NCBI GenBank assembly: GCA_964552775.1
Contig: CAZKIH010000001.1
Coordinates: 195,287 to 259,286, forward strand
Source of the DNA: an uncultured Ignavibacteria bacterium
GTDB taxonomy: Bacteria; Zixibacteria; MSB-5A5; CAIYYT01
DNA length: 64,000 bases
Reading direction: 5' to 3'
Position numbers and translations under genes: made by a program
Shown: positions 39,996 to 60,842 of the stretch, piece by piece
Layout: every line of letters starts with the position of its first letter
Position numbering within the stretch: position 1 is the first letter of the stretch
Notes under the pieces: generated by a model
What the model saw: only the letters and a program-made list of their open reading frames with translations
Told to the model about the DNA's origin: nothing
Database searches by the model: none

Positions 39996-41192
39996 ATGAG
40001 CGATTTCAAGACAGATAATGTCGATCTTTCCGGACTTAAGATAGACAAAACGAAGAAGAGTGGCGCGCCCAGCCGTGGTCGTAAGTGGCTGCATTTGCTC
40101 TGGTTACTTGTGCCGGTCATTCTGTTCTTTGGATACCGACTGACGATTGACAAAATTACGCCCGCAGCCAAGGTGAAGATTGCCACTGCGCAGATGTTAA
40201 CCGGCACTGACGCTGCCGCCGAACTCGTTGCAACAGGATATGTGGTTGCGCAGGTCAAAGCTGCCGTTGCATCGAAGGCGACGGGCCGACTCGAAGTGTT
40301 GAATGTCGAGGAGGGTGATATTGTCTCAGCCAATCAGATTCTGGCAATACTCGACAACGCCGATGTCAAGGCCGACCTTGAACGGGCTAAGGCAAATCTC
40401 GCAATGGCTCGGGCCGACTCAACAGACGCAATCATCAGGCTGAATCGAGCCAATGAATTGATTAAATCAGGATCTACTACGCAGGACATAGTGGACGCCG
40501 CCAAGGCGAACTATGACCGAGCGAAAGCGTCCGTCGAAGTAGCTCTCGCAGGCGTTCGTTATTCCGAAGTGGCCGTCGAAAACACAATTATTCGTGCTCC
40601 ATTCGACGGTACTGTGTTGTCCAAGGACGCTGATGTGGGCGAGATGGTGGCACCATTTTCATCTGCGGGATCGTCGCGTGGCGCGGTCGTGACCTTGGCA
40701 GACATGAAATCACTCGAGGTCGAGGCCGACGTCTCTGAATCCAATATTTATAAGGTGAGAGTCGGGGCTCCGTGTGAGATCGTGCTTGACGCGTACCCGA
40801 ATGAGAAATACCCGGGAATGGTAAAGAAGATTGTTCCGACGGCTGATCGTTCACGCGCCACGGTAATGACCAAGATCGCGTTTTCCCGGATTGACGAGAA
40901 GGTCTTGCCGGAAATGTCCGCACGCGTTAATTTTCTCTCGGAGAAAGACACTGTTTATAAGGCGGCCATGCCGGCAGTGATCGCCGTGCCCAAATCTGCC
41001 GTTACGAACCGCGATGATCGTCGAGTGGTTTACAGGATTGTTGGCGAAAGTGTCTCGGAAGTGGCAGTACAGGTTGGTCGCGAGCTGGGCACATTCACAG
41101 AAATCGTGTCCGGGATTGCCGTGGGCGATCAAGTTGTATTATCGCCGGCTGGTGCCATGAAATCGGGCGACAAGATAGAAATTTCAAAATAA
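39996..41192 (+). CDS. efflux transporter periplasmic adaptor subunit (HlyD/MacA family)
   Basis: N-terminal TM, coiled-coil hairpin (ADLERAKANLAMARAD...YDRAKASVEVALAG), and beta-barrel/MP domains. Confidence 0.85.
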   Translation: MSDFKTDNVDLSGLKIDKTKKSGAPSRGRKWLHLLWLLVPVILFFGYRLTIDKITPAAKVKIATAQMLTGTDAAAELVATGYVVAQVKAAVASKATGRLEVLNVEEGDIVSANQILAILDNADVKADLERAKANLAMARADSTDAIIRLNRANELIKSGSTTQDIVDAAKANYDRAKASVEVALAGVRYSEVAVENTIIRAPFDGTVLSKDADVGEMVAPFSSAGSSRGAVVTLADMKSLEVEADVSESNIYKVRVGAPCEIVLDAYPNEKYPGMVKKIVPTADRSRATVMTKIAFSRIDEKVLPEMSARVNFLSEKDTVYKAAMPAVIAVPKSAVTNRDDRRVVYRIVGESVSEVAVQVGRELGTFTEIVSGIAVGDQVVLSPAGAMKSGDKIEISK

Positions 41193-41211
41193 TTGATATA
41201 GAAGGAATCCC

Positions 41212-41886
41212 ATGGCAGAACCTTTGGTGCAGGTGCGCGGAGTCTCGAAGTCGTATTATCGCGATTCACTGGAAATACCGGTATTGCGCAACATTAGTTT
41301 TGACATCCCCGCTGGGGAGTTTCTCGCTTTGATGGGCCCATCGGGCTCCGGCAAGACGACATTACTCAATTTGATTTCAGGAATTGACCAGCCGAGTGGC
41401 GGTGATCTCGTTGTTGCCGGTGAAAACATTGCGCGGCTTAGTGAAGGTCAGTTGGCGAAGTGGCGCTCTCAGCACATCGGCCTGGTCTTCCAGTTCTACA
41501 ACTTGCTTCCGGTACTAACGGCCTACGAAAATGTCGAGCTGCCGCTGTTGCTTTATAAGCTGTCGAAGTCCGACCGCAGGAAACGAGTGGAGACGGCTCT
41601 GACGATTGTGGGCCTTGGCGATCGCATGGATCATTTTCCGCGCCAGCTTTCCGGCGGGCAGGAACAACGAGTGGCGATTGCGCGCGCAATTGTCACGGAT
41701 CCAACCCTGCTCCTGGCAGACGAACCGACCGGCGATCTGGATAAACACTCCGCGGAAGAGATCATGACTCTGCTCACGCGCCTTAACAAGGAGTTCAACA
41801 AGACAATTATCATGGTAACCCACGATCCGCGCGCCGCCGAGAAAGCGAAAGTGATTCGCAATCTCGACAAGGGCGAGTTGGCTTAG
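41212..41886 (+). CDS. ABC transporter ATP-binding protein (MacB/LolD-type)
   Basis: Walker [13 protein letters not shown], signature [14 protein letters not shown], Walker [13 protein letters not shown]. Confidence 0.9.
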
Positions 41887-41894
41887 GTGCGACG

Positions 41895-43049
41895 ATGTTG
41901 ACCAAACTGATCCTCCGGAACTCGTTTAGGCACAAGTTGCGAACGGCGCTAACAATCGTCGGTCTTGCGGTGGCAGTCATGGCTTTTGGTTTGATCCGCA
42001 CCGTTGTCGATGCCTGGTATGCAGGCGTGGAGGCTTCCGCTCCCGATCGACTGGTCACTCGCAGTTCGGTATCGATAATCTTTACTCTGCCACTTGCTTA
42101 CCGTGACCAAATAGCCAAAGTGGACGGGGTCAAGCAAGTGACTTACGCCAACTGGTTTGGCGGGATCTATGTTGACCCCAAGGACTTCTTCGCTCAGTTT
42201 GCAGTCGAGCGAGACAATTACTTCTCGATGTTTCCTGAGTTCATCATCTCTCCAGACGTACTCGATGCTTTCAACTCCAACATCAAAGGTGTGATCATCG
42301 GCCAGAAGTTGGCAGATCGATTCAAGTGGAAGGTAGGCGAGCGCGTGACTCTGATCGGCACAATCTACCCCGGCAACTGGGACTTTGATATTGTCGGTAT
42401 CTACAAGGGCAAGGATCAGACTATTGACGAATCCACCTGGTTTATGCGCTGGGACTACATTGATGAGACGATGAAACAGCAAATGCCGGGAAGGGCCGGT
42501 GAAGTTGGCTGGTACGGTCTCAAGCTCGAGGACCCCAACAAAGCAGCCGAAGTCTCGGCCGCGGTTGATGCACGATTCAAGAATTCATCGGCTGAGACAT
42601 TGACTGAAACTGAGAAAGCGTTTCAGATGAGCTTTGTCTCGATGTCCGGCGCAATCCTGGTTCTCCTGACGGTGATGTCCTGGCTGATCATCGGGGTCAT
42701 ATTGATGGTTCTGATCAACACAATGGCGATGACGGCGAGAGAACGCACCTCCGAGTACGCCTTCATGAAGTCGATGGGATTTCAAGGTTATCATCTCTGG
42801 GGAATGATCTCAGGTGAGGCAATCCTGATTTCGATATCCGGTGGAGCGTTAGGGCTGGGTCTACTGGCTGCCGTAGTCAATGTCCTCAAAGCAGGACTCA
42901 GCGCGTGGTTTCCCGTATTCAAAATACAGCCGCTGACCTGGGTCATGGTTGTTTCACTGGCGATCGCGATCGGATTGGTTGCATCGGCGTTTCCCGTACT
43001 GAAGGCAATGCGCACACGCATCGTCGACGGGCTGCGGATTGTGGATTGA
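41895..43049 (+). CDS. ABC transporter permease, FtsX-like (MacB/LolC-type periplasmic domain)
   Basis: 384 aa with 4 TM helices and a large periplasmic loop between TM1 and TM2. Confidence 0.8.
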   Translation: MLTKLILRNSFRHKLRTALTIVGLAVAVMAFGLIRTVVDAWYAGVEASAPDRLVTRSSVSIIFTLPLAYRDQIAKVDGVKQVTYANWFGGIYVDPKDFFAQFAVERDNYFSMFPEFIISPDVLDAFNSNIKGVIIGQKLADRFKWKVGERVTLIGTIYPGNWDFDIVGIYKGKDQTIDESTWFMRWDYIDETMKQQMPGRAGEVGWYGLKLEDPNKAAEVSAAVDARFKNSSAETLTETEKAFQMSFVSMSGAILVLLTVMSWLIIGVILMVLINTMAMTARERTSEYAFMKSMGFQGYHLWGMISGEAILISISGGALGLGLLAAVVNVLKAGLSAWFPVFKIQPLTWVMVVSLAIAIGLVASAFPVLKAMRTRIVDGLRIVD

Positions 43050-43057
43050 TGAGGTAA

Positions 43058-44224
43058 ATGATGATTCCTGCAAGTTACACCATTAGAAATATAACCAAAC
43101 ACAAGGTGACGTCGGGACTGACCATTCTCGGCGTCAGTTTAGTGGTCTTTGTATTTTCGGCAGTTTTGATGCTTGCTCACGGCCTGTTCGCCACAATGGT
43201 GGCGACTGGAAGCGATGACAATGTTGTGATTATTCGCAAAGCCTCACAATCGGAGGTGACATCGATTATCATGCGCGATCAGGCTGACATTGTTTCAACT
43301 TTCCCCGAAATCAAACCCGGCACGGACGGTAAGCCGCTGTTCACCAATGAAATCTATGTCTTGATTAGCCTCGACAAGCGGGATGGCGAGGGCAGTTCCA
43401 ACGTCACGGTTCGCGGCGTCACAGAGAAATCACTCGAGATGAGACCTGACATCAAGATGATTGAAGGTCGCATGTACAAGCCGGGTACGGCGGAGATCAT
43501 CGCGGGCAAATCGATCGCTCGTCGTTTCAAGGGTTGTCAGGTCGGTGAGCAGGTCAGATTCGGCTCGCGCGAATGGACGGTCGTGGGCATCTTTGATGCT
43601 TCCGGCTCAGCCTTTGACTCGGAGGTTTGGGGCGACATTGAGCAAATGATGGATGCTTTTCGACGTCCGGTGTATTCCTCCCTGACAATGAAACTGAGCG
43701 ATCCTTCGAGTCTCACCGCAGTCCAGTCGCGTATTGAAAGCGATGTTCGCTTACAACTCGAGGTCAAACCGGAGAAGGAATACTATGCAGCTCAGTCAGA
43801 AGCGACCACAAGCTTCATCATGATAATCGGGGTAGCCATCTGCATAATCTTTAGTTTCGGCGCTGTCGTCGGCGCTATGATCACCATGTACGCCGCCGTC
43901 GCTAATCGAACCAAAGAGATCGGCACTTTGCGGTCACTCGGTTTCAATCGCCTGAGCATTCTGATGGCATTTCTCTTCGAGGCATTTGTGATTTCGCTGG
44001 TCGGTGGGACAGTTGGTCTTGTCGCTGCAAGCTTCCTTCGATTTGTCCAGGTATCGACGGTGAATTTCAACACCTTTTCCGAACTCGCATTTAACTTCAC
44101 GCTGAATGGCCCAACAGTGGTCGCCGCGATTCTTTTCGCAGTGGTGATGGGATTCCTGGGAGGATTCCTGCCTGCAGTGCGGGCGTCGCGTTTGAAGATT
44201 GTCGATTCGCTGCGCGCAACTTAG
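43058..44224 (+). CDS. ABC transporter permease, FtsX-like (second copy)
   Basis: 388 aa with the same topology as the upstream permease. Confidence 0.8.
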   Translation: MMIPASYTIRNITKHKVTSGLTILGVSLVVFVFSAVLMLAHGLFATMVATGSDDNVVIIRKASQSEVTSIIMRDQADIVSTFPEIKPGTDGKPLFTNEIYVLISLDKRDGEGSSNVTVRGVTEKSLEMRPDIKMIEGRMYKPGTAEIIAGKSIARRFKGCQVGEQVRFGSREWTVVGIFDASGSAFDSEVWGDIEQMMDAFRRPVYSSLTMKLSDPSSLTAVQSRIESDVRLQLEVKPEKEYYAAQSEATTSFIMIIGVAICIIFSFGAVVGAMITMYAAVANRTKEIGTLRSLGFNRLSILMAFLFEAFVISLVGGTVGLVAASFLRFVQVSTVNFNTFSELAFNFTLNGPTVVAAILFAVVMGFLGGFLPAVRASRLKIVDSLRAT

Positions 44225-44454: not shown

Positions 44455-45807
44455 TCACCTTGCGTGTGGCGTCGTTCCCTTAAGCTGTGCACTCTCCTTT
44501 TTTTCACCTCCAAACTGAATTCCGATTCCCTTGAGGAATTCGTATGGCGGCTCTCCACCCGCAAAGACGAAGACATAGTCGTTGACAAGAACAAGTTCAC
44601 CCGATTTCGCGGCGAGGACGACGTTTTCGGTACCTATTCGTTTTACCTGTGAATCAAACACGGCTTTGATCTTGCCGTTTTGTATTAGTTTGTAGACCGC
44701 GTTCTCATTCTTTTTCTTGATCCGATAGAACGCGTCGCGGCGGTACGAAATTGTGACACGATTATTGGGTTGCCGCGCTAACCCGACCGCCGCTTCGATG
44801 GCAGAATCGCCGCCGCCGACAACCAGCAAGTCGCGCCCGTTGTAAGATTGTGCGTCAACCAATTGATACATGACCTTGGGAAGTTCTTCACCGGCTACGT
44901 TGAGCTGCCGCGGCGTTCCCCGGCGTCCGATCGCAATCAAGACGTTTGCGCACGCGTACGTTGCGCGATTGGTCGCGACAGTGAAACCTTGTGGGGCCGG
45001 CATGACACCGATTAGCTTCTCGCTACCGTGGAAACTGCCGGCAATCTTGGTTCGCAGTTGATCCCACAGTTCGATCAAGAACTCCTTGCTGTACTCGTCC
45101 TTCTTGAGTTGACCGTACAATGGCAAATCCAGAGGCTGCGTCATTACAAGTTTGTTGCGCGGGTAATGACGAATGGCGCCGCCAAGATCATCCTGGTCAA
45201 TCAGCAGATAGCGAATTCCCAATTCCTGTGCCCTCAATGCCGCGGTAATTCCGGCTGGTCCGGCGCCGACAATAATGACGGCGTACTCGTAACTCATTCT
45301 TGTTTCTCTAATCCTGTCGGCAATCGTATCAATCACCAATTTGCCGTGGCTCACCGCGTTGCGAATGAGCGAGATGCCGCTCAACTCCCCGGCGATGAAG
45401 ATTCCAGGAACTGTGGTCTCCATAGTTTTGCTCAATACTGGAATGTCAGGGCGATCGCGGACATCGCCGAGCCCAACCTTTATTGCCCCAACTGGACACT
45501 CTTTTTCACAGGCGCCGTGTCCGACGCATCGTTCTCCGTTGATGATAGTGGCAACTCCATGAACGATACCAATCACATCACCTTCGGGACAGACCATCGT
45601 GCAAGTTCCACAGCCGATACAGAGACTCGAATTAATGAACGGAAACTGCGAACGCGGGCGGTCGATTCCCAGGGCGCGTGCTTCCGCCTTGCGTTCGATT
45701 GCAAGCTTGCGCTCGATCAGGAATTTGCGGACGTAAATCCCGAGGATGATCGAGGAAACCACAATCGTCACAATCCACGTATAGACTGACTCCATGCAAC
45801 GCCTCAA
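44455..45807 (-). CDS. membrane-anchored 4Fe-4S dicluster ferredoxin domain fused to FAD/NAD(P)-binding (thioredoxin-reductase-like) oxidoreductase
   Basis: N-terminal TM helix; two Cys clusters CIGCGTCTMVCP and CVGHGACEKECP; Rossmann motifs AVIIVGAGPAG and DLLVVGGGDSAIE. Last gene of the tightly packed cytochrome operon. Confidence 0.75.
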   Translation of the reverse strand: MRRCMESVYTWIVTIVVSSIILGIYVRKFLIERKLAIERKAEARALGIDRPRSQFPFINSSLCIGCGTCTMVCPEGDVIGIVHGVATIINGERCVGHGACEKECPVGAIKVGLGDVRDRPDIPVLSKTMETTVPGIFIAGELSGISLIRNAVSHGKLVIDTIADRIRETRMSYEYAVIIVGAGPAGITAALRAQELGIRYLLIDQDDLGGAIRHYPRNKLVMTQPLDLPLYGQLKKDEYSKEFLIELWDQLRTKIAGSFHGSEKLIGVMPAPQGFTVATNRATYACANVLIAIGRRGTPRQLNVAGEELPKVMYQLVDAQSYNGRDLLVVGGGDSAIEAAVGLARQPNNRVTISYRRDAFYRIKKKNENAVYKLIQNGKIKAVFDSQVKRIGTENVVLAAKSGELVLVNDYVFVFAGGEPPYEFLKGIGIQFGGEKKESAQLKGTTPHAR

Positions 45808-45818
45808 TCACTTCCAAA

Positions 45819-47465
45819 TCAAAAACGCCGGCCGATCTCGGCGCGAAAAGTGTATCCGTCTGTGTCGTCGCCTGAATTTCGCTGATACAAGAGATCTGCA
45901 TACCAGTTTCGAATGGCCTCGATGCGCAGCACTCCCTCCCACCACCGATTGCGGCGAGAATCATTGCTCAGGACCAAGTTATATCGATACAATCCATTAG
46001 CAACTTCAGCCGATAACTTGTCCCCGAATCGTTGCGTTACCCGGACATTGTAGTTGTAGCCATCGTTGGTCGGTCCATCGAACTTTGAGTAGCGAGCGCT
46101 GATCCGGGTCTGCGATGTTGGTATTCCTGACTTGCTTGCATAGAAAACCAGTGATATCGTCGGATCGGCTTCATCAGCGGCTTTGCGGTATCCAATCTGC
46201 GAATTCAAATCGAAGTGGAACGGCAGATTGAGATAGAGATCTGCCCTTGCGCCACGGCGTAATTGATCGTCAAACAGGCTGTCGGCCAGCGACTGTTGGA
46301 TGTACGTCCAGTAATTGCGACGCGTATCGTACGACGAACCGACTGTCACCTGCTTGTTTATGCGCCAGCGGGCATTCAGGTAGACACTGGACAAATCGAA
46401 ACTTGCACTGGTTCTTTCCTTGCGCCACCCGCGATTGAAGTCGATTTCAAATTGATTGCTAAACCATAAGCCGCTGCCAACCTTCAGCGAACCTTGCAGA
46501 TTTATCAGTTCGCGGCTGATGCTGCTGCCGTGATATTCGCCGGCAAAAGCCGCGTACTGCTCAAAATGTGTATTGCCATGATTGATACTCTCGTAGCCAA
46601 CATAGCCGCCATACTTCTGAAGCGTCATGTCGTCGGAGGTATACTGCCATCTTGGCTTGATTCCGCCTGAGAGTCCAACGTGCCACCCTGATCCTACATG
46701 ACGATCAATGGCGGCGCCATCGACATAACCAACCCGGGTTAGATGACGCGGCAGAATCCTCCCCATTTGGAAGGTGGTCGCGTTGTCACTCCCGCCATAT
46801 GACAATGATAGTTCATAAATACGATTATCCCATTCGCTGTTCGAAGCTCCGGAAGAGTACTTTCTCGAGCGGTCATCATATTGTCCCCGGGTGCGGACAA
46901 CAAGCGTCATCGGCAGTGCCCATAGATTGCTGGCGCGCAGATTGAATCGCATAGTCGATTGGCTGAAATCAAGGCCACCACCCGACTTGTCGTGCTGTTT
47001 CATCCATTGCAGTGCCACTGAACCATTCAGTCGAGTTGATTTGTTGTCGCGTCTGGCTCGTGGTGTCTTTGCCGCGGGATTGGAACTGCCTGCATTCGCG
47101 GTTTCTGAATCAACGGTATCTTGAGGAGCAGGTTCCACTCGACCAATCCTACTAATCACGGTCAGTAGCTGTCCCGTTTTGAGCTCAGCGCTGCCGTTGA
47201 CGATTCTGCATGATGCTGAGTGGTCAGAAGCATACGCCACCTCCAAAGTCACGACAAGACTGTCACCGAGATACAATCCTAACCGGTCGCCTTGCATCAG
47301 ACCATCGGCCTTGCCACCTTCAAGGTAAACCCGATCGATGGAGCGGTACTTGATTCGATAACTCGCAGGGTGTTGCATCTCTTGCGAGAAGCATCGCGCA
47401 GAATTCAGTAATGTCCCGGTGACAAGCGCAATTAGTGCGAGGAGCAGAAGTGGCCGACGGATCAT
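45819..47465 (-). CDS. outer-membrane beta-barrel protein, candidate porin partner of the adjacent multiheme cytochromes
   Basis: Signal peptide MIRRPLLLLALIALVTGTLLNSARCFSQE and a long alternating-strand C-terminal region ending ...GYTFRAEIGRRF (terminal Phe, the OMP insertion signature). Its start codon abuts the stop of the 58-heme cytochrome gene. Confidence 0.6.
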   Translation of the reverse strand: MIRRPLLLLALIALVTGTLLNSARCFSQEMQHPASYRIKYRSIDRVYLEGGKADGLMQGDRLGLYLGDSLVVTLEVAYASDHSASCRIVNGSAELKTGQLLTVISRIGRVEPAPQDTVDSETANAGSSNPAAKTPRARRDNKSTRLNGSVALQWMKQHDKSGGGLDFSQSTMRFNLRASNLWALPMTLVVRTRGQYDDRSRKYSSGASNSEWDNRIYELSLSYGGSDNATTFQMGRILPRHLTRVGYVDGAAIDRHVGSGWHVGLSGGIKPRWQYTSDDMTLQKYGGYVGYESINHGNTHFEQYAAFAGEYHGSSISRELINLQGSLKVGSGLWFSNQFEIDFNRGWRKERTSASFDLSSVYLNARWRINKQVTVGSSYDTRRNYWTYIQQSLADSLFDDQLRRGARADLYLNLPFHFDLNSQIGYRKAADEADPTISLVFYASKSGIPTSQTRISARYSKFDGPTNDGYNYNVRVTQRFGDKLSAEVANGLYRYNLVLSNDSRRNRWWEGVLRIEAIRNWYADLLYQRNSGDDTDGYTFRAEIGRRF

Positions 47466-50400
47466 TTAATCGTTTCCATCCGGATGACAATTCAGGCATG
47501 CCGCACTCTGCCAAGAATAGCCATTCTCGTCCTGGTGTTTGTCATCCATCGTTGCCTGACTGTGCTCATGGCAGAAAATACACTCGAAAACAGCATAGTT
47601 GGACGTGTTGACATGGCAATCATTGCAATTATCCCATGCTTCTCGATGCTTGCCCGAGTAGATCGGAAAGTACTGCGTGTCATGATTCCAATTAGCCGGA
47701 GTCCATGCCGTTGTTGAGTGACAGGTCTGGCAATCGGTCGGGAAGTTCGCTGCAGCATGACTTGGCGCAGTAGTGCCACTGTAGGCATCTTGATGGCACG
47801 AGAAACACAACGTCGGTGTAGCGACGTATCCACCAGAATGGCAGGCGATGCACATCAATCCGACATGCGCGCCCGTTAACGGGAAGTTGGTCGTACTATG
47901 GTTAAATGATGCCGGCTCCCAGGCAGTGGTCGTGTGGCATTCAGTACATTGGTGCGAGAATCCATTCGTCACATGATTGGGATCGGTCACGGCTGCAAAA
48001 TCGCCTTGGTGGCAGCTATAACAGTCTGCTGGTGTATTGGTGTATCCCGCAGAGTGACAAGCGACACACTGCAGCCCGGTGTGACCGCCGGTGAGAGCGA
48101 AGCCCGTAGTGCTATGATTAAACGTCGACGGAGTCCAGACGGAAGTCGTGTGACAGGTCACGCAATTGTGATCAAAATTGTTAGCAACGTGATTCGGATC
48201 GGCAACGCCTGCAAAGTCTCCTTGGTGGCATGAATAACAAGCCGTTGACGTATTGGTATATCCTGACGAATGACAAGCGAGACATTGCAGTCCGGAATGT
48301 CCACCCGTAAGTGGGAATTGTGTCAGGCTGTGATCAAATGTCGCTGGCGTCCAAGCCGTGGTCCCGTGACAATTGGTGCAGAGTTGATCAAAATTGTTCG
48401 TCACATGATTAGGGTCAGACACCGCTGTGAAGTCGCCGGAGTGACATCCAAAACAAGTCTGGCTCGTGCCCGCATACGTTTGCGAATGACAAGAAATGCA
48501 CTGGAGCGAAGTATGTGCTCCCACTAACACAAATCCCGTGGTAGTGTGGTCCCAGTTGGTCGACTCCCAGTTCAAAGTGCCGTGACAAGTGGCACAGTTG
48601 TTGTCGAATCCGGCACTTGTATGATTCGGATTTGTGGCTTCAGTTACATCTGCTTGATGACATGATATGCAGGTGTTCGGGGTGTTTGTGTAGCCCGAAG
48701 TATGACAGCTTACGCAGGTCGCAGTTGAATGGGCTCCAGTTAACGTAAATCCAGTCTGGCTGTGATCAAAATTGCTCGGTTCCCAGGCTGTTGTGGAGTG
48801 ACAAGTGCTGCAGTCGTGGTCAAAGTTATTCTGCACATGATTGGGATTAGACGTTGAAGTGAAGTCACCGCTATGACAGTCAAAACAGAGGTTTGGCGTA
48901 TTCGTATAGCCGGTTGCATGGCATGAGATACAAGCCAGCGACGTGTGCGCCCCGGTTAACGCGAATCCTGTTGAGCTGTGGTTGAAATTGCTCGGTTCCC
49001 ATGCTGTTGTCGAGTGGCAAGTGCCGCAGTTATGGTCAAAGTTGTTCTGCACATGATTGGGGTCAGTCGTCCCCGCAAAGTCACCGCTATGGCAGTCGAA
49101 ACAGAGGTTCGGCGTATTCGTATAGCCGGTTGCATGACACGATATACACGCCAACGAAGTGTGGGCGCCGGTTAAATTGAACCCAGTTTGACTATGGTCA
49201 AAATCAGCAGGTTCCCACGCCGTTGTCGAGTGGCAAGTGCCGCAATTATGGTCAAAGTTGTTCTGCACATGATTGGGGTCAGTCGTCCCCGCAAAGTCAC
49301 CGCTATGACAGTCAAAACAAAGCGTCGGCGTATTCGTGTAACCCGTCGAATGGCATGAAATGCAGTTCGCCGATGTGTGCGCTCCAGTTAACACGAATCC
49401 GGTAGCAGAGTGGTCAAAAGATGACGGTTCCCACGCCGTTGTCGAGTGACAACTCGTACAGTCGTGATCAAAGTTGTTTTGCTCATGGTCAGGATCGGTC
49501 GTTCCCGCAAAGTCACCGCTATGACAGTCAAAACAAAGCGTCGGCGTATTCGTGTAACCCGTCGAATGGCATGAAATGCAGTTCGCCGATGTGTGCGCTC
49601 CAGTTAACACGAATCCGGTAGCAGAGTGGTCAAAAGATGACGGTTCCCACGCCGTTGTCGAGTGACAACTCGTACAGTCGTGATCAAAGTTGTTTTGCTC
49701 ATGGTCAGGATCAGTCGTTCCCGCAAAATCACCGCTATGACAGTCAAAACAAAGCGTCGGCGTATTGGTGTAACCCGTCGAATGGCATGAAATGCAGTTC
49801 GCCGATGTGTGGGCTCCAGTTAATACGAATCCGGTGGCAGAGTGGTCAAAAGATGACGGCTCCCACGCCATTGTCGAGTGACAACTCGTACAGTTGTGAT
49901 CAAAGTTGTTTGTCACGTGATTCGGATCGGTAGCTGATGCAAAGGCTTCGCTGTGACAGTCGAAGCATTGAGTGGCCGTCCCAACATAGCCCCCGCTATG
50001 GCAAGAGATACAAGCTAAGGTCTGATGTGCACCAGTCAGGGCAAACTGCGTCTGATTGTGATCGAACGTCGCCGGCGTCCAGGCAGAATTGGAGTGACAG
50101 GAAAGGCAGTTGTGATCAAAGTTCCCGCCTTCGTGGTCCGGATCATTCGCTTGAGCGAAGTCGCCTGAATGACAGGAAAAGCACTGTGGTGAGGTGTTCG
50201 CGTATCCACCCGAGTGACACGACTGGCAATCAAGTCCGACGTGTCCGCCTTCGAGGGGAAACCCCGTGAGTGCATGATCGTAACCGCGCGGATCAACTGG
50301 CAGCCATCCTGCGGTCGTATGACAGCCGGCACAATCATGGCCCAGTCCATTCGTTACATGGTTCGGATCAGTTGCGGCGGCAAATGCCATTTGATGGCAT

Positions 50401-51743
50401 GAATAACAGTCGTTGGCTGTATTAGCATATCCAGCACTGTGGCACGATTGACATTCCAGCTCCAAATGTGCTCCATTGATAGCAAATCCAGTCTGATCGT
50501 GATCAAATTCCGCCGGCTCCCAGGCGGTTGTGGTATGGCATTGCTGGCAGTCATGACTGAAATTCGCGGCCTCGTGGTCGGGGCTATCGGTAGCGGCAAA
50601 TCCGCTACTGTGGCACGAAAAGCAGTCTGAAGCAGTGTTGGTGTACCCTTCGCCGTGGCAATTCTGACATGCTAAAGCCGTGTGCGCGCCGGTCAGGGCG
50701 AAACTCGTCGCACTGTGATCGAAGTCCGCTGGCTCCCACGCGTTCATATTGTGGCAAGTCGTGCAGTCATGATCAAAATTGCCGGCCGTGTGGTCCGGCT
50801 CGTCTGCGTCGGCAAAGGCGGAGCTATGACAACTGAAGCAGTCAGTAGCTGTGTTCGTGTAGGAACTGCTGTGGCAATCCTGGCACTCAACCTTGGTGTG
50901 CGCACCTTCAAGCGCAAAACTAGTCACATTATGATCAAAGGTCGCCGGTGTCCAGGCCGTCATCGTATGACAAGTTGAGCAGTCCTGTGAGAAGTTTGCA
51001 GCTTCGTGGTCTGGATCTGGTGCTTCAAGGTAATCGGCGTTGTGGCAAGAATAACAGTCAGTCGGCGTTCCGGCAAATTGGGTAGCGTGACAAGAGGCGC
51101 AGTCAAGGCCCTGATGTCCACCTTCAAGGATCGGAGTAGGTGGATGGTCGAATTTCGCCCCTTCCCACGTGACCGCCGACGAGCGATGACACTGTACGCA
51201 ATCGCTGTCGAATCCCGCCAATACATGATTGGGATCAGTGGTTGTGTTGAAGTCGCTTTCGTGACAAAACTGACAATCAGCAGGAGTGCCGGCATATTGT
51301 TCGCTCAGTTGTCCCTTATGACATGACTGGCAATCCACAATCGCGTGAGTACCTGCCAGCGGAAAACCGCGTGAAGCGTGAACTTCAAAAACTTCCTGTT
51401 CGTTCTGCCACCCGCGAGTTGTATGGCAATTCTGACAGGTTGAACCTAACTGACCATTGTGTTGATCGGCATGGCAATCGGCGCAATTATCAGGGGTTTT
51501 CGCAAACGTAAGGTCATTGTGACAAGCGATACACTTAATCTGTTTATGTTTACCGGATAAAGGAAATCCTGTTTCGTCGTGGCGAAACTTGGTTTCTGTC
51601 GGAATCTCTTTCCAGTTCCCGGTCGAGTGGCAGGTCGCACAATCGAACTTGATGTCGCCGTGGGGATTATCACCCTGGGCGATGGCAAGAATTGTGAGGC
51701 CGGCTGCGAAAGCAGTTGTCAGGCAGACTCTTACAAGAGTCAT
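47466..51743 (-). CDS. giant multiheme c-type cytochrome (about 58 CxxCH motifs; tandem c7-like triheme domains)
   Basis: Signal peptide; 1425 aa; about 58 CxxCH counted by eye. The repeating unit is ~72 aa with 3 CxxCH and conserved His (..FDH..TGAH..C.SCHS.GY.NT...CF.CHSGDFAG.TDP(N/D)H..NNFDH.C..CHST.AW.P), resembling polymerised cytochrome c7 (PpcA-like) domains. Confidence 0.9.
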   Translation of the reverse strand: MTLVRVCLTTAFAAGLTILAIAQGDNPHGDIKFDCATCHSTGNWKEIPTETKFRHDETGFPLSGKHKQIKCIACHNDLTFAKTPDNCADCHADQHNGQLGSTCQNCHTTRGWQNEQEVFEVHASRGFPLAGTHAIVDCQSCHKGQLSEQYAGTPADCQFCHESDFNTTTDPNHVLAGFDSDCVQCHRSSAVTWEGAKFDHPPTPILEGGHQGLDCASCHATQFAGTPTDCYSCHNADYLEAPDPDHEAANFSQDCSTCHTMTAWTPATFDHNVTSFALEGAHTKVECQDCHSSSYTNTATDCFSCHSSAFADADEPDHTAGNFDHDCTTCHNMNAWEPADFDHSATSFALTGAHTALACQNCHGEGYTNTASDCFSCHSSGFAATDSPDHEAANFSHDCQQCHTTTAWEPAEFDHDQTGFAINGAHLELECQSCHSAGYANTANDCYSCHQMAFAAATDPNHVTNGLGHDCAGCHTTAGWLPVDPRGYDHALTGFPLEGGHVGLDCQSCHSGGYANTSPQCFSCHSGDFAQANDPDHEGGNFDHNCLSCHSNSAWTPATFDHNQTQFALTGAHQTLACISCHSGGYVGTATQCFDCHSEAFASATDPNHVTNNFDHNCTSCHSTMAWEPSSFDHSATGFVLTGAHTSANCISCHSTGYTNTPTLCFDCHSGDFAGTTDPDHEQNNFDHDCTSCHSTTAWEPSSFDHSATGFVLTGAHTSANCISCHSTGYTNTPTLCFDCHSGDFAGTTDPDHEQNNFDHDCTSCHSTTAWEPSSFDHSATGFVLTGAHTSANCISCHSTGYTNTPTLCFDCHSGDFAGTTDPNHVQNNFDHNCGTCHSTTAWEPADFDHSQTGFNLTGAHTSLACISCHATGYTNTPNLCFDCHSGDFAGTTDPNHVQNNFDHNCGTCHSTTAWEPSNFNHSSTGFALTGAHTSLACISCHATGYTNTPNLCFDCHSGDFTSTSNPNHVQNNFDHDCSTCHSTTAWEPSNFDHSQTGFTLTGAHSTATCVSCHTSGYTNTPNTCISCHQADVTEATNPNHTSAGFDNNCATCHGTLNWESTNWDHTTTGFVLVGAHTSLQCISCHSQTYAGTSQTCFGCHSGDFTAVSDPNHVTNNFDQLCTNCHGTTAWTPATFDHSLTQFPLTGGHSGLQCLACHSSGYTNTSTACYSCHQGDFAGVADPNHVANNFDHNCVTCHTTSVWTPSTFNHSTTGFALTGGHTGLQCVACHSAGYTNTPADCYSCHQGDFAAVTDPNHVTNGFSHQCTECHTTTAWEPASFNHSTTNFPLTGAHVGLMCIACHSGGYVATPTLCFSCHQDAYSGTTAPSHAAANFPTDCQTCHSTTAWTPANWNHDTQYFPIYSGKHREAWDNCNDCHVNTSNYAVFECIFCHEHSQATMDDKHQDENGYSWQSAACLNCHPDGND
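49190..49840. repeat. three near-identical tandem 216-bp repeats inside the giant cytochrome gene (more diverged copies span roughly 48100..51000)
   Basis: Plus-strand shadow ORFs at 49223, 49421 and 49637 give nearly identical translations with a 216-nt offset. The minus-strand protein repeats TAWEPSSFDHSATGFVLTGAHTSANCISCHSTGYTNTPTLCFDCHSGDFAGTTDPDHEQNNFDHDCTSCHST three times identically. Confidence 0.75.
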
Positions 51744-51760
51744 CTTGACACCATCCAGAA

Positions 51761-53422
51761 TTAGAGTTTGCCGGTCTTTGAATCGTGGCAGTCTTTACAT
51801 TCAGTACCTAATGGCTTGTATCGGACTAAAACAGTCGATTCTTGAATGATATTGCCATGACATTCACTACAAGGCACCTTTGAGTGCGCTCCATCGAGAC
51901 GATACCGCGAGTCACGGTTATGGTCAAACTTCGAGGCCTTCCAATTGTCAGTTTGGTGACAACGGTCGCAGGCAGTCTGTCCGTCAATGACAAACTGCCC
52001 TCGATGAATATCTTTATGACATTCGTTGCAGTTTCTTGGCAGTAGCTCGAAAGTCAGAAGTGATACGTTAGTTTTATCATTTTTGTTCCCATGACAGTCA
52101 AGGCATTCGACACTTGCGTGCTTTCCAGTCAGTGGGAATCTGGTTGAATCGTGTGCAAAGAATGATTCTTTCCAACCCTCGACACCATGACAGCTCTCGC
52201 AGCCGCCACTGTTGATCAACTTGTCTGCCCTTCCACTATGCGGATCCTTGTGGCAGATTTTACAGGCAGTCTCTTGGTACGCAAATCTGTATTGGCGCTG
52301 TGACCTGCCAGACGGAGAGGTTACGTGACAGCCATCGCAGGGTACCGCAAGGTGTGCTCCTCGCAGTGGATAGTCACAGCTATCGTGCTGCTCAACCGTG
52401 AAGATTCCAGGACGAAATCCATCCACATTGTGGCAGCGTTCGCATTTCGCACCACCGGAGCTTCCAACAAAAGCGCCCTGGTGATAATCAGAGTGGCAAT
52501 CGCCGCAACTGGAGAACGCCAGCAACTTGCGGGGGCCCTCCTGCTTGTGACACTTTTCGCACTGCAGCGGTATATGCAGTCCCAAGAGCGGGAAGCGAGT
52601 CTTGCTGTGATCGAAGCTGTTGTTGTTAACTGCTCGCCATCCTCCTGTGTTGTGACACCCCGAGCAGTTCTGCCCGAGGCGATTGGCATGCGGGTCTTTG
52701 TGACACGCGCTGCACTCAGCGTAGCTGAGGCCGGTAAACTTCTGGTATGAAGTGTCAGCTACTGCCGACTTGTCGACGAGAACAGGATGACACTTGGTGC
52801 ACTCAGCCTTTTGATGTTGACCAGTCAGAGGATACTTTGCCTTTTGATGGTCGAACGAAACTGCCGGCTTCCACGCTGTGTTGGAATGGCAAGATTCACA
52901 CTTGTTGGAAACCTGACCACGATGTTCGTCAAAATGGCAGCTACTGCACTTAGTCGACAATCCCAGAAGTGTCCGGTTTGGATCTTTGCGCGTATCTCCC
53001 TCCTTCAGGTCCGGCACAACATTCTTAGCCGTATGACACTGCCGGCACTGCAGTGGCTTGTGCGCTCCACTAAGATCGTATCCAGTTAGCGAATGGTCGA
53101 AGGCTGCTTCACCGTCTTTCCAATATACCAAAGCGAAATCGCGACCATGGTGCTCGACATGACACTCTTCGCACACCTTGTATTGATTGCTTCCGTGAAG
53201 CCCGTCGAGTTCATTTAGTTGTTTCTGGATCAATGTGTGGCAGACCAGGCAATTGGGGCCAATCTGCTTTCGATCGGAACCATGACATGAACGGCAATTG
53301 TCGAGACCCTCCAAGTGGCTGTGTGCCTTCGAAAGGTCTCCCGGGGACAATTGTGCAAAGGCCGAGGCTGATATCAAGGCAGCGACGGCTGCGACAAATC
53401 GCCAATAATTGCTCGGTCTCAT
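51761..53422 (-). CDS. multiheme c-type cytochrome (about 20 CxxCH motifs)
   Basis: Signal peptide MRPSNYWRFVAAVAALISASAFAQ. 20 CxxCH counted by eye (CRSCHG, CLVCHT, CEECHV ... CKDCHD) and little else but heme-binding spacing. Confidence 0.85.
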   Translation of the reverse strand: MRPSNYWRFVAAVAALISASAFAQLSPGDLSKAHSHLEGLDNCRSCHGSDRKQIGPNCLVCHTLIQKQLNELDGLHGSNQYKVCEECHVEHHGRDFALVYWKDGEAAFDHSLTGYDLSGAHKPLQCRQCHTAKNVVPDLKEGDTRKDPNRTLLGLSTKCSSCHFDEHRGQVSNKCESCHSNTAWKPAVSFDHQKAKYPLTGQHQKAECTKCHPVLVDKSAVADTSYQKFTGLSYAECSACHKDPHANRLGQNCSGCHNTGGWRAVNNNSFDHSKTRFPLLGLHIPLQCEKCHKQEGPRKLLAFSSCGDCHSDYHQGAFVGSSGGAKCERCHNVDGFRPGIFTVEQHDSCDYPLRGAHLAVPCDGCHVTSPSGRSQRQYRFAYQETACKICHKDPHSGRADKLINSGGCESCHGVEGWKESFFAHDSTRFPLTGKHASVECLDCHGNKNDKTNVSLLTFELLPRNCNECHKDIHRGQFVIDGQTACDRCHQTDNWKASKFDHNRDSRYRLDGAHSKVPCSECHGNIIQESTVLVRYKPLGTECKDCHDSKTGKL

Positions 53423-53425
53423 GCT

Positions 53426-54289
53426 TTAAGACAAACCCGCGAATCCAGTCCATATCGCAATTCCGATATGAACACCCATTATCAGGTACATAATAATGGC
53501 AAAGGGCTTGTGGATAACGTGCCAATAGTGAAATACTTCGCGCGTTCTATCCAGCATTTCGATACGTCGCGCAAGCGCGGCGCGCTCGAGGGCGAGCCGC
53601 GCCAGTTGCTTCAACCCGCGATCAACTGATGCAAATGATCGTTTCATATCCTTCATGAGGCGGCGAGTCAGCATCGGCCGGGCGAAGTCCGCCATGATGG
53701 CCCCAACCAGCAGCCTAAGAAATGAGCCCTCAGTCGAGATCATCCGTTTCGACAAAATCTCAAGCTGAGCCAATTGTTCCGGCGCCAGCCCATATTTGTC
53801 CCTCAAAATCTCCGTCGTCAATTGCACCTGTTTATCGACCTCAGTCATTGTCAGCTCATCGCCTTCCTGGTTGCGGGGTATTAGCTGATAGAGATAGCGC
53901 CCCAAGTATCCGCTTAGTGCCACCGCAATCATTGACCAGAATGCGACTGCTATCAGTCCCTGTACCTTAAATGACGAATGGAGAACAATGAAAAGCGGTC
54001 CGCACACACCAAGATAGATGTGTAGCTTCAACCAATTACGCAACGTGATTCTCTTGCCGAGCAGTTTGGTGCGTTTTCGAAGAGAATAGGACAACATCAA
54101 AACCATCATTGCCGAACCAATGTATCCGAATACAATTCCCAGACTCCCTGCCGGTCGCAGCGCACGATAGTCCTCGTGGTGCGGGCGCTCAATATAGGAT
54201 GTGCCGTAGTACTGGAGTCCAGCGACCAGGTAATAAACGATGATTATCAGGGTTAAAGTGTACAGAATGATCAAGAATTTTCTCATCAA
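53426..54289 (-). CDS. integral membrane protein with conserved His in TM helices; candidate b-heme/quinol-interacting anchor of the cytochrome operon
   Basis: 287 aa: 4 N-terminal TM helices, a ~110-aa cytoplasmic basic helical segment and a C-terminal TM. His residues in the TMs (HIYLGVCGPLFIVLHSS; HYWHVIHKPFAIIMYLIMGVHIGI). First gene of the operon; overlaps the next gene's start by 4 nt. Confidence 0.55.
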   Translation of the reverse strand: MMRKFLIILYTLTLIIIVYYLVAGLQYYGTSYIERPHHEDYRALRPAGSLGIVFGYIGSAMMVLMLSYSLRKRTKLLGKRITLRNWLKLHIYLGVCGPLFIVLHSSFKVQGLIAVAFWSMIAVALSGYLGRYLYQLIPRNQEGDELTMTEVDKQVQLTTEILRDKYGLAPEQLAQLEILSKRMISTEGSFLRLLVGAIMADFARPMLTRRLMKDMKRSFASVDRGLKQLARLALERAALARRIEMLDRTREVFHYWHVIHKPFAIIMYLIMGVHIGIAIWTGFAGLS

Positions 54290-58707: not shown

Positions 58708-58730
58708 TGAAGTTCCAGTCTCCCGACGAG

Positions 58731-60830: not shown

Positions 60831-60842
60831 TTTCCACCCTGC

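Follow-up and report, generated by a model that had tools for sequence, protein, structure and literature searches.

A predicted 22-strand outer-membrane barrel encoded directly behind a 58-haem cytochrome gene, a probable component of a porin-cytochrome electron conduit

Results and Discussion

Main finding

A 548-aa protein encoded in a 64,000-nucleotide stretch of metagenomic DNA (hereafter, the window) probably forms the outer-membrane part of a porin-cytochrome electron conduit that spans the envelope and is encoded by five genes. Because its gene lies directly behind that of a very large cytochrome in a conserved five-gene operon (Table 1), the predicted barrel is likely to be the outer-membrane passage of this conduit. 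It is through porin-cytochrome conduits that electrons pass between diderm bacteria and minerals, electrodes, or other cells. To our knowledge, clusters of the PCC3 type, which have cytochromes of record size, have been recognised in genome sequences since 2017 but never tested. Here, the barrel partner is defined as a large predicted family with a clear domain plan, and yet one that is annotated in neither Pfam nor NCBIfam. In the loci examined, the barrel gene is accompanied by those of two cytochromes, one of about 20 haems and the other varying between 25 and 58, and by those of a membrane protein of the di-haem b type and an Fe-S flavoprotein of the NAD(P) type. A PCC3-like system is thereby extended to the Zixibacteria and the wider FCB group, and a copy on plasmid pEMTOL02 opens to experiment both the outer-membrane crossing of a 40-60-haem wire and the origin of its electrons.

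Table 1. Features of the barrel gene, its predicted product, and the neighbouring module genes, in window coordinates.
Feature	Coordinates	Strand	Evidence
Predicted outer-membrane barrel gene, 548 aa	45819..47465, including TGA stop	-	ORF listing, re-translation, homologues, AF2 model
Junction: TAA of the 58-haem cytochrome gene, then barrel ATG	47463..47468	-	Minus-strand read, re-translation
Signal peptide, approximately residues 1-28, MIRRPLLLLALIALVTGTLLNSARCFSQ	47382..47465	-	Sequence reading; AF2 helix at residues 5-23
Six-strand small beta-barrel domain, residues 35-105, FlgT_C-like, motif S-A-S-C (Cys86)	47151..47363	-	AF2, Foldseek, alignments
Disordered, poorly conserved linker, residues 106-144 (39 aa)	47034..47150	-	pLDDT <50 for residues 110-139
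Predicted 22-strand transmembrane beta-barrel, residues 145-548 (404 aa)	45822..47033	-	DSSP of AF2 model
Predicted extracellular loop L6, residues 345-355, RGWRKERTSAS, motif N-R-G-W-R	46401..46433	-	Conservation 0.55
Predicted extracellular loop L7, residues 381-404, motif D-S-L-F-D-D	46254..46325	-	Conservation 0.58
C-terminal beta-signal-like last strand, TFRAEIGRRF; family consensus ExGYRF	45822..45851	-	Alignment, re-translation
Flavoprotein, 446-450 aa	44455..45807, likely start ATG 45795 preceded by GAGG	-	Pfam, NCBIfam, start context
Cytochrome, 1425 aa, 58 CxxCH	47466..51743	-	Haem-site count; Pfam Cytochrome_C7, c3, MtrC-II/IV
Cytochrome, 553 aa, 20 CxxCH	51761..53422	-	Haem-site count, Pfam
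Inner-membrane protein, 287 aa, 5 TM, two WX3HX13H and SGYLG	53426..54289	-	Sequence, alignment A3

The barrel gene and its junction with the cytochrome gene

The original prediction, made from the window sequence, placed the start codon of the barrel gene against the stop codon of a 58-haem cytochrome gene and gave the protein a terminal Phe. Minus-strand reading and re-translation bear out each of these points. The TAA (47468-47466) and the barrel ATG (47465-47463) have 0 bases separating them ('...GAT TAA ATG ATC...'), the upstream gene encodes 58 CxxCH motifs in 1425 aa, and the barrel protein ends in ...EIGRRF, followed by TGA. Upstream of the ATG there is just a weak purine-rich GGATGG, 11-16 nt away, and a promoter and terminator scan gave signal no higher than background. 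An abutting TAA and ATG, together with a weak Shine-Dalgarno-like sequence, would fit termination-reinitiation, and coupled synthesis of the two proteins would let the barrel assemble around its partner.

The barrel ORF and the 1425-aa cytochrome ORF are in the same reading frame, an arrangement that holds true at the window locus. Stop-codon readthrough leading to a Cyc2-like fusion was considered and rejected: homologues show -1/-4 overlaps or gaps at this junction, and the barrel protein retains a signal peptide of its own. An apparent cytochrome-barrel fusion at one related locus (P0163) contains a signal peptide in its interior as well as garbled stretches, and probably arose through faulty assembly or gene calling.

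The 548-aa ORF is no chance reading frame but a genuine gene, since the database contains one entry that is 100% identical to it and 42 homologues, and at least 1124 representatives of the family are found at E<=1e-3 in a 50%-identity library (282 at E<=1e-30). One organism label, Candidatus Zixiibacteriota, occurs among the family clusters. A genome scan with the single protein gave five loci, and a profile search of the protein database gave three more relatives.

At every locus examined (the window, L001/2, L003-5, L007, L008, L011-L014, and the misassembled fusion P0163), a multihaem cytochrome gene lies directly 5' of the barrel gene, and the two genes often overlap; the stop-to-start distances are 0, 0, -1, -1, -4, +8, +19, and +63 nt. 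The tight linkage that had been proposed between the barrel gene and that of the large cytochrome is thus conserved in distant lineages, at spacings of -4 to +63 nt. Adjacency is kept at 21-81% protein identity, including on a Bacteroidota plasmid and on high-GC metagenome contigs, and no member of the barrel family without a cytochrome neighbour was seen among these loci. On the other side of the barrel gene, the flavoprotein gene adjoins it in the conserved module across the loci examined. A full copy of the module, with its own cytochrome-maturation gene and a 40-haem large cytochrome, is present on plasmid pEMTOL02 of the cultured Emticicia oligotrophica DSM 17448 (genes EMTOL_RS21085-21110); tblastn searches of plasmids with the barrel or the 20-haem cytochrome returned Emticicia only.

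Predicted fold of the barrel protein

Four parts can be distinguished in the AF2 model of the 548-aa protein (pLDDT 82; barrel blocks mostly 85-96): after the signal peptide come a FlgT-like beta domain of 70 aa, a linker that is disordered, and a barrel of 22 strands, although the pTM of only 0.63 suggests that their arrangement relative to one another is uncertain. An outer-membrane beta-barrel, as originally predicted, is supported by this model, by the alternating strand faces, by the signal peptide, which has no lipobox, and by a C-terminal beta-signal of the G-x-x-F type. The hydrophobic/polar alternation has a family average of 2.26, versus 1.05+-0.78 for shuffled sequence. The 22 modelled strands fall within the range of about 20-26 that had been expected from the protein's length, but a barrel of 548 aa is an overestimate: the protein is a barrel protein in which just residues 145-548 form the barrel, and the other 144 aa are signal peptide, domain, and linker. 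A small, occluded barrel of 12-16 strands, named beforehand as the contrary outcome, was not seen. The modelled barrel has loops of 2-24 aa each (95 loop residues altogether) and no plug domain in its lumen. These short loops, and an N-terminal domain kept apart by the 39-aa linker, suggest a lumen that may be empty and in need of a partner.

The polar face of the barrel is Arg-rich, its net charge averaging +8.8 over the family. Conservation is lower in the linker (0.21) than in the barrel (0.44), and within the barrel the predicted loops L6 (0.55) and L7 (0.58) exceed the strands (0.46). In the region of L6, N344, W347, and R348 are nearly invariant in the family. L7 is the most conserved barrel segment; it has a short helix at residues 393-403 in the AF2 model, and L397 and D399 are invariant in alignment A1.

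Foldseek comparison of the barrel model with the PDB returned outer-membrane barrels exclusively, including PapC/FimD ushers, OprD/Occ, AlgE, and maltoporin. Since these matches are generic (TM 0.3-0.5), they rule out naming a specific structural relative. Sequence searches likewise gave no family for the 548-aa protein, in Pfam at E<=0.1 (with neither TonB_dep_Rec nor Plug (PF07715), a feature of the 22-strand TonB-dependent receptors) or in NCBIfam, and a profile of 38 homologues had 0 matches at E<=10 among all PDB chain sequences. With no match in Pfam, NCBIfam, or the PDB sequences, the protein is not detectably of the MtrB family, and the MtrB-type likeness that had been suggested does not extend to sequence. 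Weak OMP_b-brl or Porin_4 Pfam matches are present in eight family members.

The N-terminal domain

Modelled alone by AF2, the N-terminal domain has a pLDDT of 92. Its best PDB fold matches are to FlgT (3w1e and 8z5n, TMq 0.72-0.73), and the crown domain of F1-ATPase is nearly as good. FlgT, a Vibrio flagellar H-ring protein that lies in the periplasm in association with the outer membrane, resembles the domain in its fold, a small beta-barrel of six strands; however, the sequence scores are at or below the Pfam threshold, and a flagellar context is absent at the window locus. Specifically, weak matches to FlgT_C (PF16538) were found in 11 of 64 relatives, the best with 26.1 bits against a cut-off of 27, and the window protein has no match. 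The domain is conserved (0.49), and Cys86 is retained across the family. An intermolecular disulfide between Cys86 and a cytochrome was considered and rejected, as the cytochromes have no conserved free Cys.

A conserved N-terminal periplasmic plug had been one of the features to look for; what is present instead is this 70-aa domain, tethered on a disordered linker. In longer homologues, the domain is duplicated, or is accompanied by SH3_3/AMIN periplasmic domains via long Pro/Ala linkers, and it is therefore considered to be tethered in the periplasm and not a plug. A TonB-type plug is rejected by the size of the domain, by the linker, by the duplication in homologues, and by the replacement or extension with SH3 and AMIN domains. 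Presumably, the domain hangs in the periplasm on its flexible linker.

The partner proteins

The 58-haem protein has 24.6 aa per haem, 39% T+S+A+G, 1.3% K+R, and a net charge of -126, and its gene contains a 216-bp tandem array of 5.3 copies. Among the large cytochromes, the ends are kept (37-48% identity over the N-terminal ~200 aa and 49-61% over the C-terminal ~136 aa) while the middle varies, and haem numbers range from 25 to 58. The second cytochrome is constant, with 20-23 haems in all homologous loci. One variable and one fixed cytochrome would fit one free extracellular partner and one periplasmic partner of fixed length. On the basis of length variation and composition only, the 58-haem protein is presumed to be extracellular and the 20-haem protein to span the periplasm. 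Both have ordinary Sec signal peptides; for the 58-haem protein, no lipobox, C-terminal sorting domain, or export signal beyond Sec was seen in the sequence. Against TIGR03508 (decahaem MtrA/DmsE), the cytochromes score only 39 bits, with a cut-off of 192.

The 287-aa protein has the motifs WLKLH-x13-H, SGYLG, and WHVIH-x13-H, and H90, H104, H260, H274, W256, G127, and G130 are invariant in alignment A3. It has weak Pfam matches to DUF4405, cytochrome b561, and Ferric_reduct, and is presumed to be a ferric-reductase-like di-haem b protein; SGXXG and HX13H motifs have been described for the inner-membrane proteins of PCC3 and PCC4 (He et al. 2017, PMC5566968). The flavoprotein consists of an N-terminal TM helix, a Lys/Arg-rich stretch, a 2x[4Fe-4S] ferredoxin, and a TrxR/YpdA-like FAD/NAD(P) domain, with matches to Fer4 and Pyr_redox_3 (4e-45) in Pfam and to YpdA/TrxR-like families in NCBIfam. 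From these domain families, we infer that NAD(P)H may be its electron donor. Plasmid tblastn with the membrane protein returned another, three-gene module (Fe-S flavoprotein, membrane protein, and 7-haem cytochrome), which is found on plasmids in Methylophaga, Methylocystis, Bradyrhizobium, and Glaciecola, and once beside zwf/gnd/tal.

Comparison with known conduits

MtrB, which we know of as the sole cytochrome-sheathing barrel with a solved structure, has 26 strands (PDB 6R2Q). The MtrCAB system of Shewanella (MtrB/PioB, PF11854) has the same logic as that proposed here, in that a barrel insulates a haem wire, an extracellular cytochrome sits on top, and the genes are co-transcribed. The window barrel has no sequence match to MtrB and is predicted to have 22 strands; the fit of a haem chain in this narrower barrel is an estimate. 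The partners of MtrB are the decahaem MtrA and MtrC, whereas those of the window barrel are 20- and 58-haem chains of c7/c3-like units. The porin gene of MtrCAB follows that of the sheathed periplasmic cytochrome, while in the window it follows that of the presumed extracellular one. Finally, the input to MtrCAB is quinol via CymA, and the window module is presumed to be fed by a flavoprotein using NAD(P)H together with a di-haem b protein.

A close comparison is with PCC3 (He et al. 2017, PMC5566968; Gallionellaceae survey, PMC10734462), which is itself a predicted, 'functionally unverified' cluster (PMC12442390). All four cluster-level features of PCC3 are found in the window module, together with a PCC4/Ptd-like flavoprotein, the likeness being drawn from cluster features. 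The porin gene adjoins multihaem cytochrome genes in PCC3, as in the window and all related loci, and follows directly after the gene of the presumed extracellular cytochrome in both. The 'extracellular' cytochrome of PCC3 has a published median of 34 haems and 26-30 aa per haem, compared with 58 and 24.6 in the window, and is similarly T/S/A/G-rich with tandem repeats. The 'periplasmic' cytochrome has ~21 haems (20 in the window and 20-23 in relatives), and the inner-membrane protein of ~300 aa carries the same SGXXG and two WX3HX13H motifs as the 287-aa window protein. For the PCC3 porin of Leptothrix cholodnii, 22 transmembrane strands have been predicted. In contrast, the overall gene order differs, published PCC3 clusters are without the fifth gene for an Fe-S flavoprotein, and an N-terminal FlgT-like domain, such as the window porin has, is not reported for PCC3 porins. 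The hosts also differ, being Alpha-, Beta-, and Gammaproteobacteria for PCC3 and Zixibacteria/Ignavibacteria-labelled MAGs, Bacteroidota, and other non-proteobacterial lineages for the window module. No named proteobacterial PCC3 cluster was returned by the genome scan, by the protein searches, among them a profile search with the inner-membrane protein that listed close relatives only, or by plasmid tblastn.

PCC4 (He et al. 2017) and ptdABCDEFG (bioRxiv 10.1101/2023.11.21.568154), from Proteobacteria and Planctomycetes, likewise combine a porin, multihaem cytochromes, a ferric-reductase-like membrane protein, a 4Fe-4S protein, and an FAD/NAD(P) oxidoreductase. However, their cytochromes are three small periplasmic ones with 4, 5, and 10 haems, and a giant extracellular one is missing, whereas the window module has cytochromes of 20 and 58 haems, and their Fe-S and flavin are on separate proteins, not fused in one as in the window. 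By description, OmbB-OmaB-OmcB (Geobacter Pcc) and Cyc2 are similarly outer-membrane barrels dedicated to cytochromes, but the Geobacter partners (the 8-haem OmaB and the 12-haem lipoprotein OmcB) differ from the window cytochromes, and Cyc2 carries a haem motif within the same polypeptide as its barrel, while the window barrel protein contains 0 CxxCH and 0 Cx3-4CH motifs. An OmbB-based HMM has caught a PCC3-like Burkholderiales porin whose gene follows those of 24- and 49-haem cytochromes (Arbour et al. 2020, PMC7399161). In recent papers on peat, bioanode, and methane-oxidising communities, other cytochrome clusters were found and not the window type.

Proposed conduit and alternative explanations

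In the probable conduit, the flavoprotein, working at the cytoplasmic face, would oxidise NAD(P)H and pass the electrons through its two [4Fe-4S] clusters to the two b-haems of the ferric-reductase-like membrane protein, and from there to the periplasm-spanning 20-haem cytochrome. A haem chain would then run through the 22-strand barrel, either as the tip of the 20-haem protein or as one conserved end of the 58-haem protein. Outside, the acidic 58-haem wire would carry electrons tens of nanometres outward, to minerals, humics, or partner cells. The tethered N-terminal domain and the conserved loops L6 and L7 may provide docking surfaces for the two cytochromes. That a cytochrome occupies the lumen, which one it is, and that it pairs 1:1 with the barrel are inferences from gene order.

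It is unlikely that the barrel serves instead as an export pore for the giant cytochrome rather than as its permanent sheath, with the haem-loaded wire threaded lengthwise, the N-terminal domain recruiting it as that of an usher does, and the pore later closing or holding the conserved terminal module of the cytochrome. The best PDB fold matches of the barrel are in fact the PapC and FimD ushers (E 1e-8 to 5e-8), but at TM 0.34-0.38 and ~10% identity they do not stand above ordinary porins in the same list, and ushers have 24 strands and an internal plug domain that is absent here. An export function would suit a tethered domain with a protein-interaction fold, gene coupling specifically to the exported cytochrome, and a 58-haem protein that has a Sec signal alone, although the module has no conserved chaperone-like gene. 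Moreover, a barrel could both export the cytochrome and sheathe it permanently.

Also distinctly unlikely is a barrel that serves mainly as an anchor, with its periplasmic N-terminal domain and turns fixing the distal end of the 20-haem cytochrome at the outer membrane, and that admits solutes (Fe chelates, flavins, or humic fragments) for reduction in the periplasm, where the 58-haem protein would be a store or capacitor. Such solutes would pass through an open barrel of 22 strands and short loops, yet an unplugged pore of this size would make the outer membrane leaky, and a passive channel would not need predicted extracellular loops that are the most conserved. Similarly, the lack of an identified export route would suit a periplasmic 58-haem protein, but the chain would be ~50 nm if extended, which far exceeds the width of the periplasm, and its length is unconstrained between lineages (25-58 haems). 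The conserved N-terminal domain, which resembles an interaction module, is consistent with an anchor. Finally, the protein could be a nutrient porin of the usual kind, or a structural protein of the outer membrane, that merely shares an operon with cytochromes. The generic Foldseek matches (OprD/Occ, AlgE, maltoporin) and the absence of a sequence signature linking the barrel to characterised electron-transfer porins could be cited for this reading, but it is very improbable given cytochrome adjacency in all lineages examined, at 21-81% identity and often with overlapping genes.

A sheathing barrel within the five-gene conduit is the preferred reading. More tentatively, and with some doubt, the whole module may be a quinone-independent electron export line that runs from NAD(P)H through FAD, 2x[4Fe-4S], b-haems, the 20-haem cytochrome, and the 22-strand barrel to an extracellular wire, the length of which would be tuned by gain or loss of 72-aa three-haem repeats (25-58 haems); such a module would be mobile and widespread outside the Proteobacteria. 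Read as an export line, it can be likened to NOX/FRE enzymes, as a bacterial counterpart lengthened by haem wires.

Organization of the barrel gene and its operon

The barrel gene is number four of five tightly packed genes on the minus strand (see table). On that strand, the junction with the 58-haem cytochrome gene reads GAT TAA ATG ATC; thus, as originally predicted, no nucleotide separates the cytochrome stop codon (47468-47466) from the barrel start codon (47465-47463), and the two ORFs share one frame, a single TAA apart (47463-47468). This shared frame is probably incidental, because homologous gene pairs have -1 or -4 overlaps, or gaps. Readthrough of the TAA in the window would yield a fused cytochrome-barrel protein. 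In different lineages, the large-cytochrome stop and the barrel start lie 0, 0, -1, -1, -4, +8, +19, and +63 nt apart. Therefore, the proposed tight coupling of the two genes holds beyond the window and is a conserved property.

Judged by its homologues, the barrel ORF is a real gene, because a 90%-clustered database contains one identical protein and 42 homologues, and a 50%-clustered library contains 1124 representatives at E<=1e-3 (789 at 1e-10 and 282 at 1e-30). Searches of Pfam and NCBIfam models with the protein gave no match. A GC-rich hairpin followed by TTTTGATTTG (45825-45844, minus strand) overlaps the final codons and the stop codon of the barrel gene and immediately precedes the flavoprotein gene. 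An attenuator role between these genes is conceivable, although terminator-like sites are no commoner here than in shuffled sequence.

Features of the operon, the predicted barrel protein, and related loci (residues refer to the barrel protein; L numbers are the compared loci)
Feature	Location	Strand	Properties
Membrane protein gene	53426..54289	minus	287 aa; first gene of operon
20-haem cytochrome gene	51761..53422	minus	553 aa; 20 CxxCH; 3-nt gap from membrane protein gene
58-haem cytochrome gene	47466..51743	minus	1425 aa; 58 CxxCH; 17-nt gap from 20-haem gene
Tandem array in 58-haem gene	48777-49911	minus	216-bp unit; 5.3 copies; 87% identity
Barrel gene	45819..47465	minus	548 aa; ATG start
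Flavoprotein gene	44455..45795/45807	minus	446-450 aa; 11-23-nt gap from barrel gene
Signal-peptide helix	residues 5-23		AlphaFold2
Small six-strand beta domain	residues 35-105		AlphaFold2
Low-confidence segment	residues 110-139		AlphaFold2; pLDDT <50
22 beta strands	residues 145 to 547		AlphaFold2
Close relatives labelled Ignavibacteria or uncultured	L003-L005		20 + 58 haems
More distant metagenome lineages	L001/L002, L011, L013		20 + 25 or 28 haems
High-GC lineage	L014		817-aa barrel protein; large cytochrome 31 haems; second gene called at 201 aa, uncounted
Permuted order, extra ~265-aa gene	L012, L015, L016		L012: 23 + 25 haems
Plasmid pEMTOL02, Emticicia oligotrophica DSM 17448 (cultured Bacteroidota)	L008		23 + 40 haems
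Extra gene	L012 11638-12438; L015 2502-3293; L016 2264-3079; L008 12012-12782		

Predicted structure of the barrel

The AlphaFold2 model of the barrel protein (38 homologues; mean pLDDT 82, pTM 0.63) falls within the 20-26 strands originally estimated, and its barrel blocks mostly have pLDDT values of 85-96; at this pTM, the placement of the N-terminal domain relative to the barrel is uncertain. The loops between strands are 2-24 residues long, amount to approximately 95 residues altogether, and include no plug-like insert. Evidence separate from the model comes from the family-averaged alternation of hydrophobicity between strand faces (mean difference 2.26, versus 1.05+-0.78 for shuffled sequence). 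The protein ends in Phe, as had been noted (C-terminus EIGRRF), and the family consensus is ExGYRF. Both this consensus and the face alternation fit a BAM-inserted outer-membrane barrel, in which the C-terminus carries the OMP beta-signal.

Foldseek searches against the PDB returned outer-membrane barrels only (the PapC and FimD ushers, MOMP, OccK/OprD, AlgE, and maltoporin), at TM 0.3-0.5 and ~10% identity, and the barrel is therefore without a specific structural relative. The suggested comparison with MtrB-type porins was not borne out, since Pfam, NCBIfam, and PDB profile searches gave no MtrB-family match; a search of PDB chain sequences with the family profile stayed empty up to E<=10, and any relationship to MtrB is therefore undetectable. 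By these sequence searches, the protein is not a detectable member of the MtrB family; it is also not Cyc2, having no haem site, and not a TonB receptor, having no plug.

With 22 strands, so few loop residues, and no plug, the barrel would leave the outer membrane open unless it were filled. To our knowledge, every large barrel has either a plug or an occupant (examples are TonB receptors, ushers, LptD, and MtrB), and here the adjacent cytochromes are the sole conserved candidates for occupancy. On the model, a cytochrome sheath is the best reading, and it is rather probable that the protein forms the outer-membrane part of a cytochrome conduit. The main rival, an export pore, is unlikely. Two further properties bear on the sheath reading. 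L6 (NRGWRKE motif) and L7 (a helix with DSLFDD), which are the longest of the predicted extracellular loops, are the best-conserved barrel segments (conservation: L6 0.55, L7 0.58, strands 0.46, periplasmic turns 0.33); this pattern is opposite to the usual one for exposed loops of porins and suggests a protein-protein interface. Additionally, the polar strand face is Arg-rich (family mean net charge +8.8), and would complement acidic, haem-propionate-rich cytochromes. The original prediction was right in outline, in that the window encodes a predicted outer-membrane barrel dedicated to the giant cytochrome.

The N-terminal domain

Modelled separately, residues 30-112 reach pLDDT 92, and their closest PDB folds are those of FlgT, a periplasmic flagellar H-ring protein (3w1e and LPHT ring 8z5n; TMq 0.72-0.73), with the six-strand crown domain of F1-ATPase subunits close behind. 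Weak FlgT_C Pfam matches occur in 11 of 64 family members. Between this domain and the barrel lies a disordered linker of low conservation (0.21, versus 0.44 for the barrel). Homologues of 663-817 aa (P0120, P0146, P0153, P0158, P0184, and P0192) have N-terminal extensions joined by long Pro/Ala-rich spacers; in some, the FlgT-like domain is doubled with such spacers between copies, whereas others have gained a different domain, which is a bacterial SH3_3 in P0146 and P0153 and an AMIN in P0192. Because the domain is duplicated and swapped with known periplasmic modules, we argue that it is a tethered periplasmic interaction domain; the same features speak against a lumen plug of the TonB-receptor type. 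Instead of the N-terminal periplasmic plug that the original prediction proposed to look for, the model shows a FlgT-like domain on a disordered linker. A single strongly conserved cysteine, Cys86 (47208-47210, S-A-S-C motif), is present in every copy of the domain, including that of Emticicia and both copies in the duplicated L014 homologue. No conserved free cysteine that could partner it was found in the cytochromes.

The two cytochromes

The first cytochrome has 20-23 haems in all lineages, and the second has 25, 25, 28, 31, 40, or 58. In the variable cytochrome, the N-terminal ~200 aa (37-48% identity) and C-terminal ~136 aa (49-61%) are conserved and the middle varies. The tandem array lies in this middle part of the 58-haem gene; each of its repeat units encodes 72 aa with three haems, and three successive units are identical in protein sequence. 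Because homologous genes keep their ends but range from 25 to 58 haems, the wire appears to lengthen or shorten as repeat units are gained or lost. In the 58-haem protein, there is one haem per 24.6 aa; T+S+A+G make up 39% of the residues and K+R only 1.3%, versus 10.2% for D+E (net charge -126, haem propionates uncounted). Its mature form opens with an NPHG motif conserved in all lineages; the 20-haem protein is near neutral. Since one partner is constant and the other varies freely in length, we infer that the 20-haem cytochrome spans the periplasm and the 58-haem cytochrome extends into open space. Scaled from decahaem MtrA (~100 Å; He et al. 2017, PMC5566968), their lengths would be ~20 nm and >50 nm, respectively.

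Proposed electron path and comparison with known clusters

The flavoprotein carries a TM helix at its N-terminus, along with two 4Fe-4S motifs and a TrxR/YpdA-like FAD/NAD(P) domain. A Lys/Arg-rich stretch follows the helix, and the positive-inside rule would place the Fe-S and FAD/NAD(P) domains on the cytoplasmic side. In the family alignment, four His of the membrane protein are invariant and form two HX13H pairs, which lie on different helices; a Trp four residues ahead of the second pair is likewise invariant, and the protein also has SGxxG. Exactly these motifs are the signature of the PCC3/PCC4 inner-membrane protein, likened to the di-haem ferric-reductase/NOX transmembrane domain (He et al. 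2017, PMC5566968). In the simplest scheme, electrons would pass from NAD(P)H via FAD, two [4Fe-4S] clusters, and two haems b to the 20-haem cytochrome, and then through the barrel and along the 58-haem wire to an external acceptor. With NAD(P)H as the partner, outward flow would be the thermodynamically sensible direction, and the conduit would act as an electron sink with no proton-pumping step.

The operon has all four defining cluster-level features of PCC3 (He et al. 2017, PMC5566968), namely a porin, an 'extracellular' cytochrome that is very rich in haems and built of repeats, a 'periplasmic' cytochrome with ~21 haems, and a membrane protein of ~300 aa carrying SGXXG and two WX3HX13H motifs. 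PCC3 is a known cluster type that is still 'functionally unverified' (PMC12442390; PMC10734462), and its descriptions are confined to Proteobacteria. The additional flavoprotein is reminiscent of the FAD/NAD(P) and 4Fe-4S genes found in PCC4 and in the ptd operon. The cytochromes of those clusters are small (4, 5, and 10 haems), without a giant one among them. The operon therefore joins an architecture like that of PCC3 to a cytoplasmic input like that of PCC4/Ptd; it occurs in other phyla, and its porin family is unnamed in databases. The PCC3 likeness is one of cluster architecture and could in principle be convergent. A porin beside a cytochrome is unsurprising to specialists; yet a large unannotated family, a complete five-gene envelope-spanning module, and a plasmid copy in a cultured strain bring a long-standing question within reach of experiment.

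Related loci and genomic neighbourhood

The five-gene set was found again in each related locus retrieved. The window probably derives from a Zixibacterium; its nearest named relatives are MAGs of Zixibacteria or with an Ignavibacteria label. In the aerobic Emticicia strain, the 100-kb plasmid (NC_018749.1; locus L008 at 78000-94000) encodes, in its module, ccsA, the membrane protein, the flavoprotein, the 23-haem and 40-haem cytochromes, and the barrel, with the fused cytochrome-c maturation gene ccsA preceding the cluster. This barrel aligns with the family profile over its full length (hhalign probability 99.9%, E 8e-33). A ResB/CcsA gene adjoins the module in L015 as well. Because of this plasmid location and these neighbouring genes, the conduit module looks mobile and appears to bring its own haem-attachment machinery. 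One sub-lineage has an extra gene (~256-271 aa) after the barrel gene that is missing from the window operon; in Emticicia it is annotated as 'GW dipeptide domain-containing protein'.

Plasmids of Methylophaga, Methylocystis, Bradyrhizobium BTAi1, and Glaciecola (L009, L010, L017, and L018) carry a three-gene module without a barrel gene, consisting of a 2Fe-2S flavoprotein (~560-670 aa), an HX13H membrane-protein homologue, and a 7-haem cytochrome c. In these proteobacterial plasmids, the membrane-protein homologue sits between the other two genes; the module adjoins zwf, gnd, and tal once, and a NiFe hydrogenase operon in another case. Its gene content suggests a device of general use for linking a reductant in the cytoplasm to a periplasmic cytochrome.

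In the window, kdpE, kdpD, and ORFs resembling kdpC, kdpB, and kdpA by eye lie directly upstream of the operon (54756-62531, minus). A nitric oxide reductase of the quinol type (NorB fused to a cytochrome-c-like domain) is encoded at 33747-36014 (plus), and a MacAB-type ABC efflux set (39996-44224, plus; HlyD, an ABC ATPase, and two FtsX/MacB permeases) converges on the 3' end of the operon.
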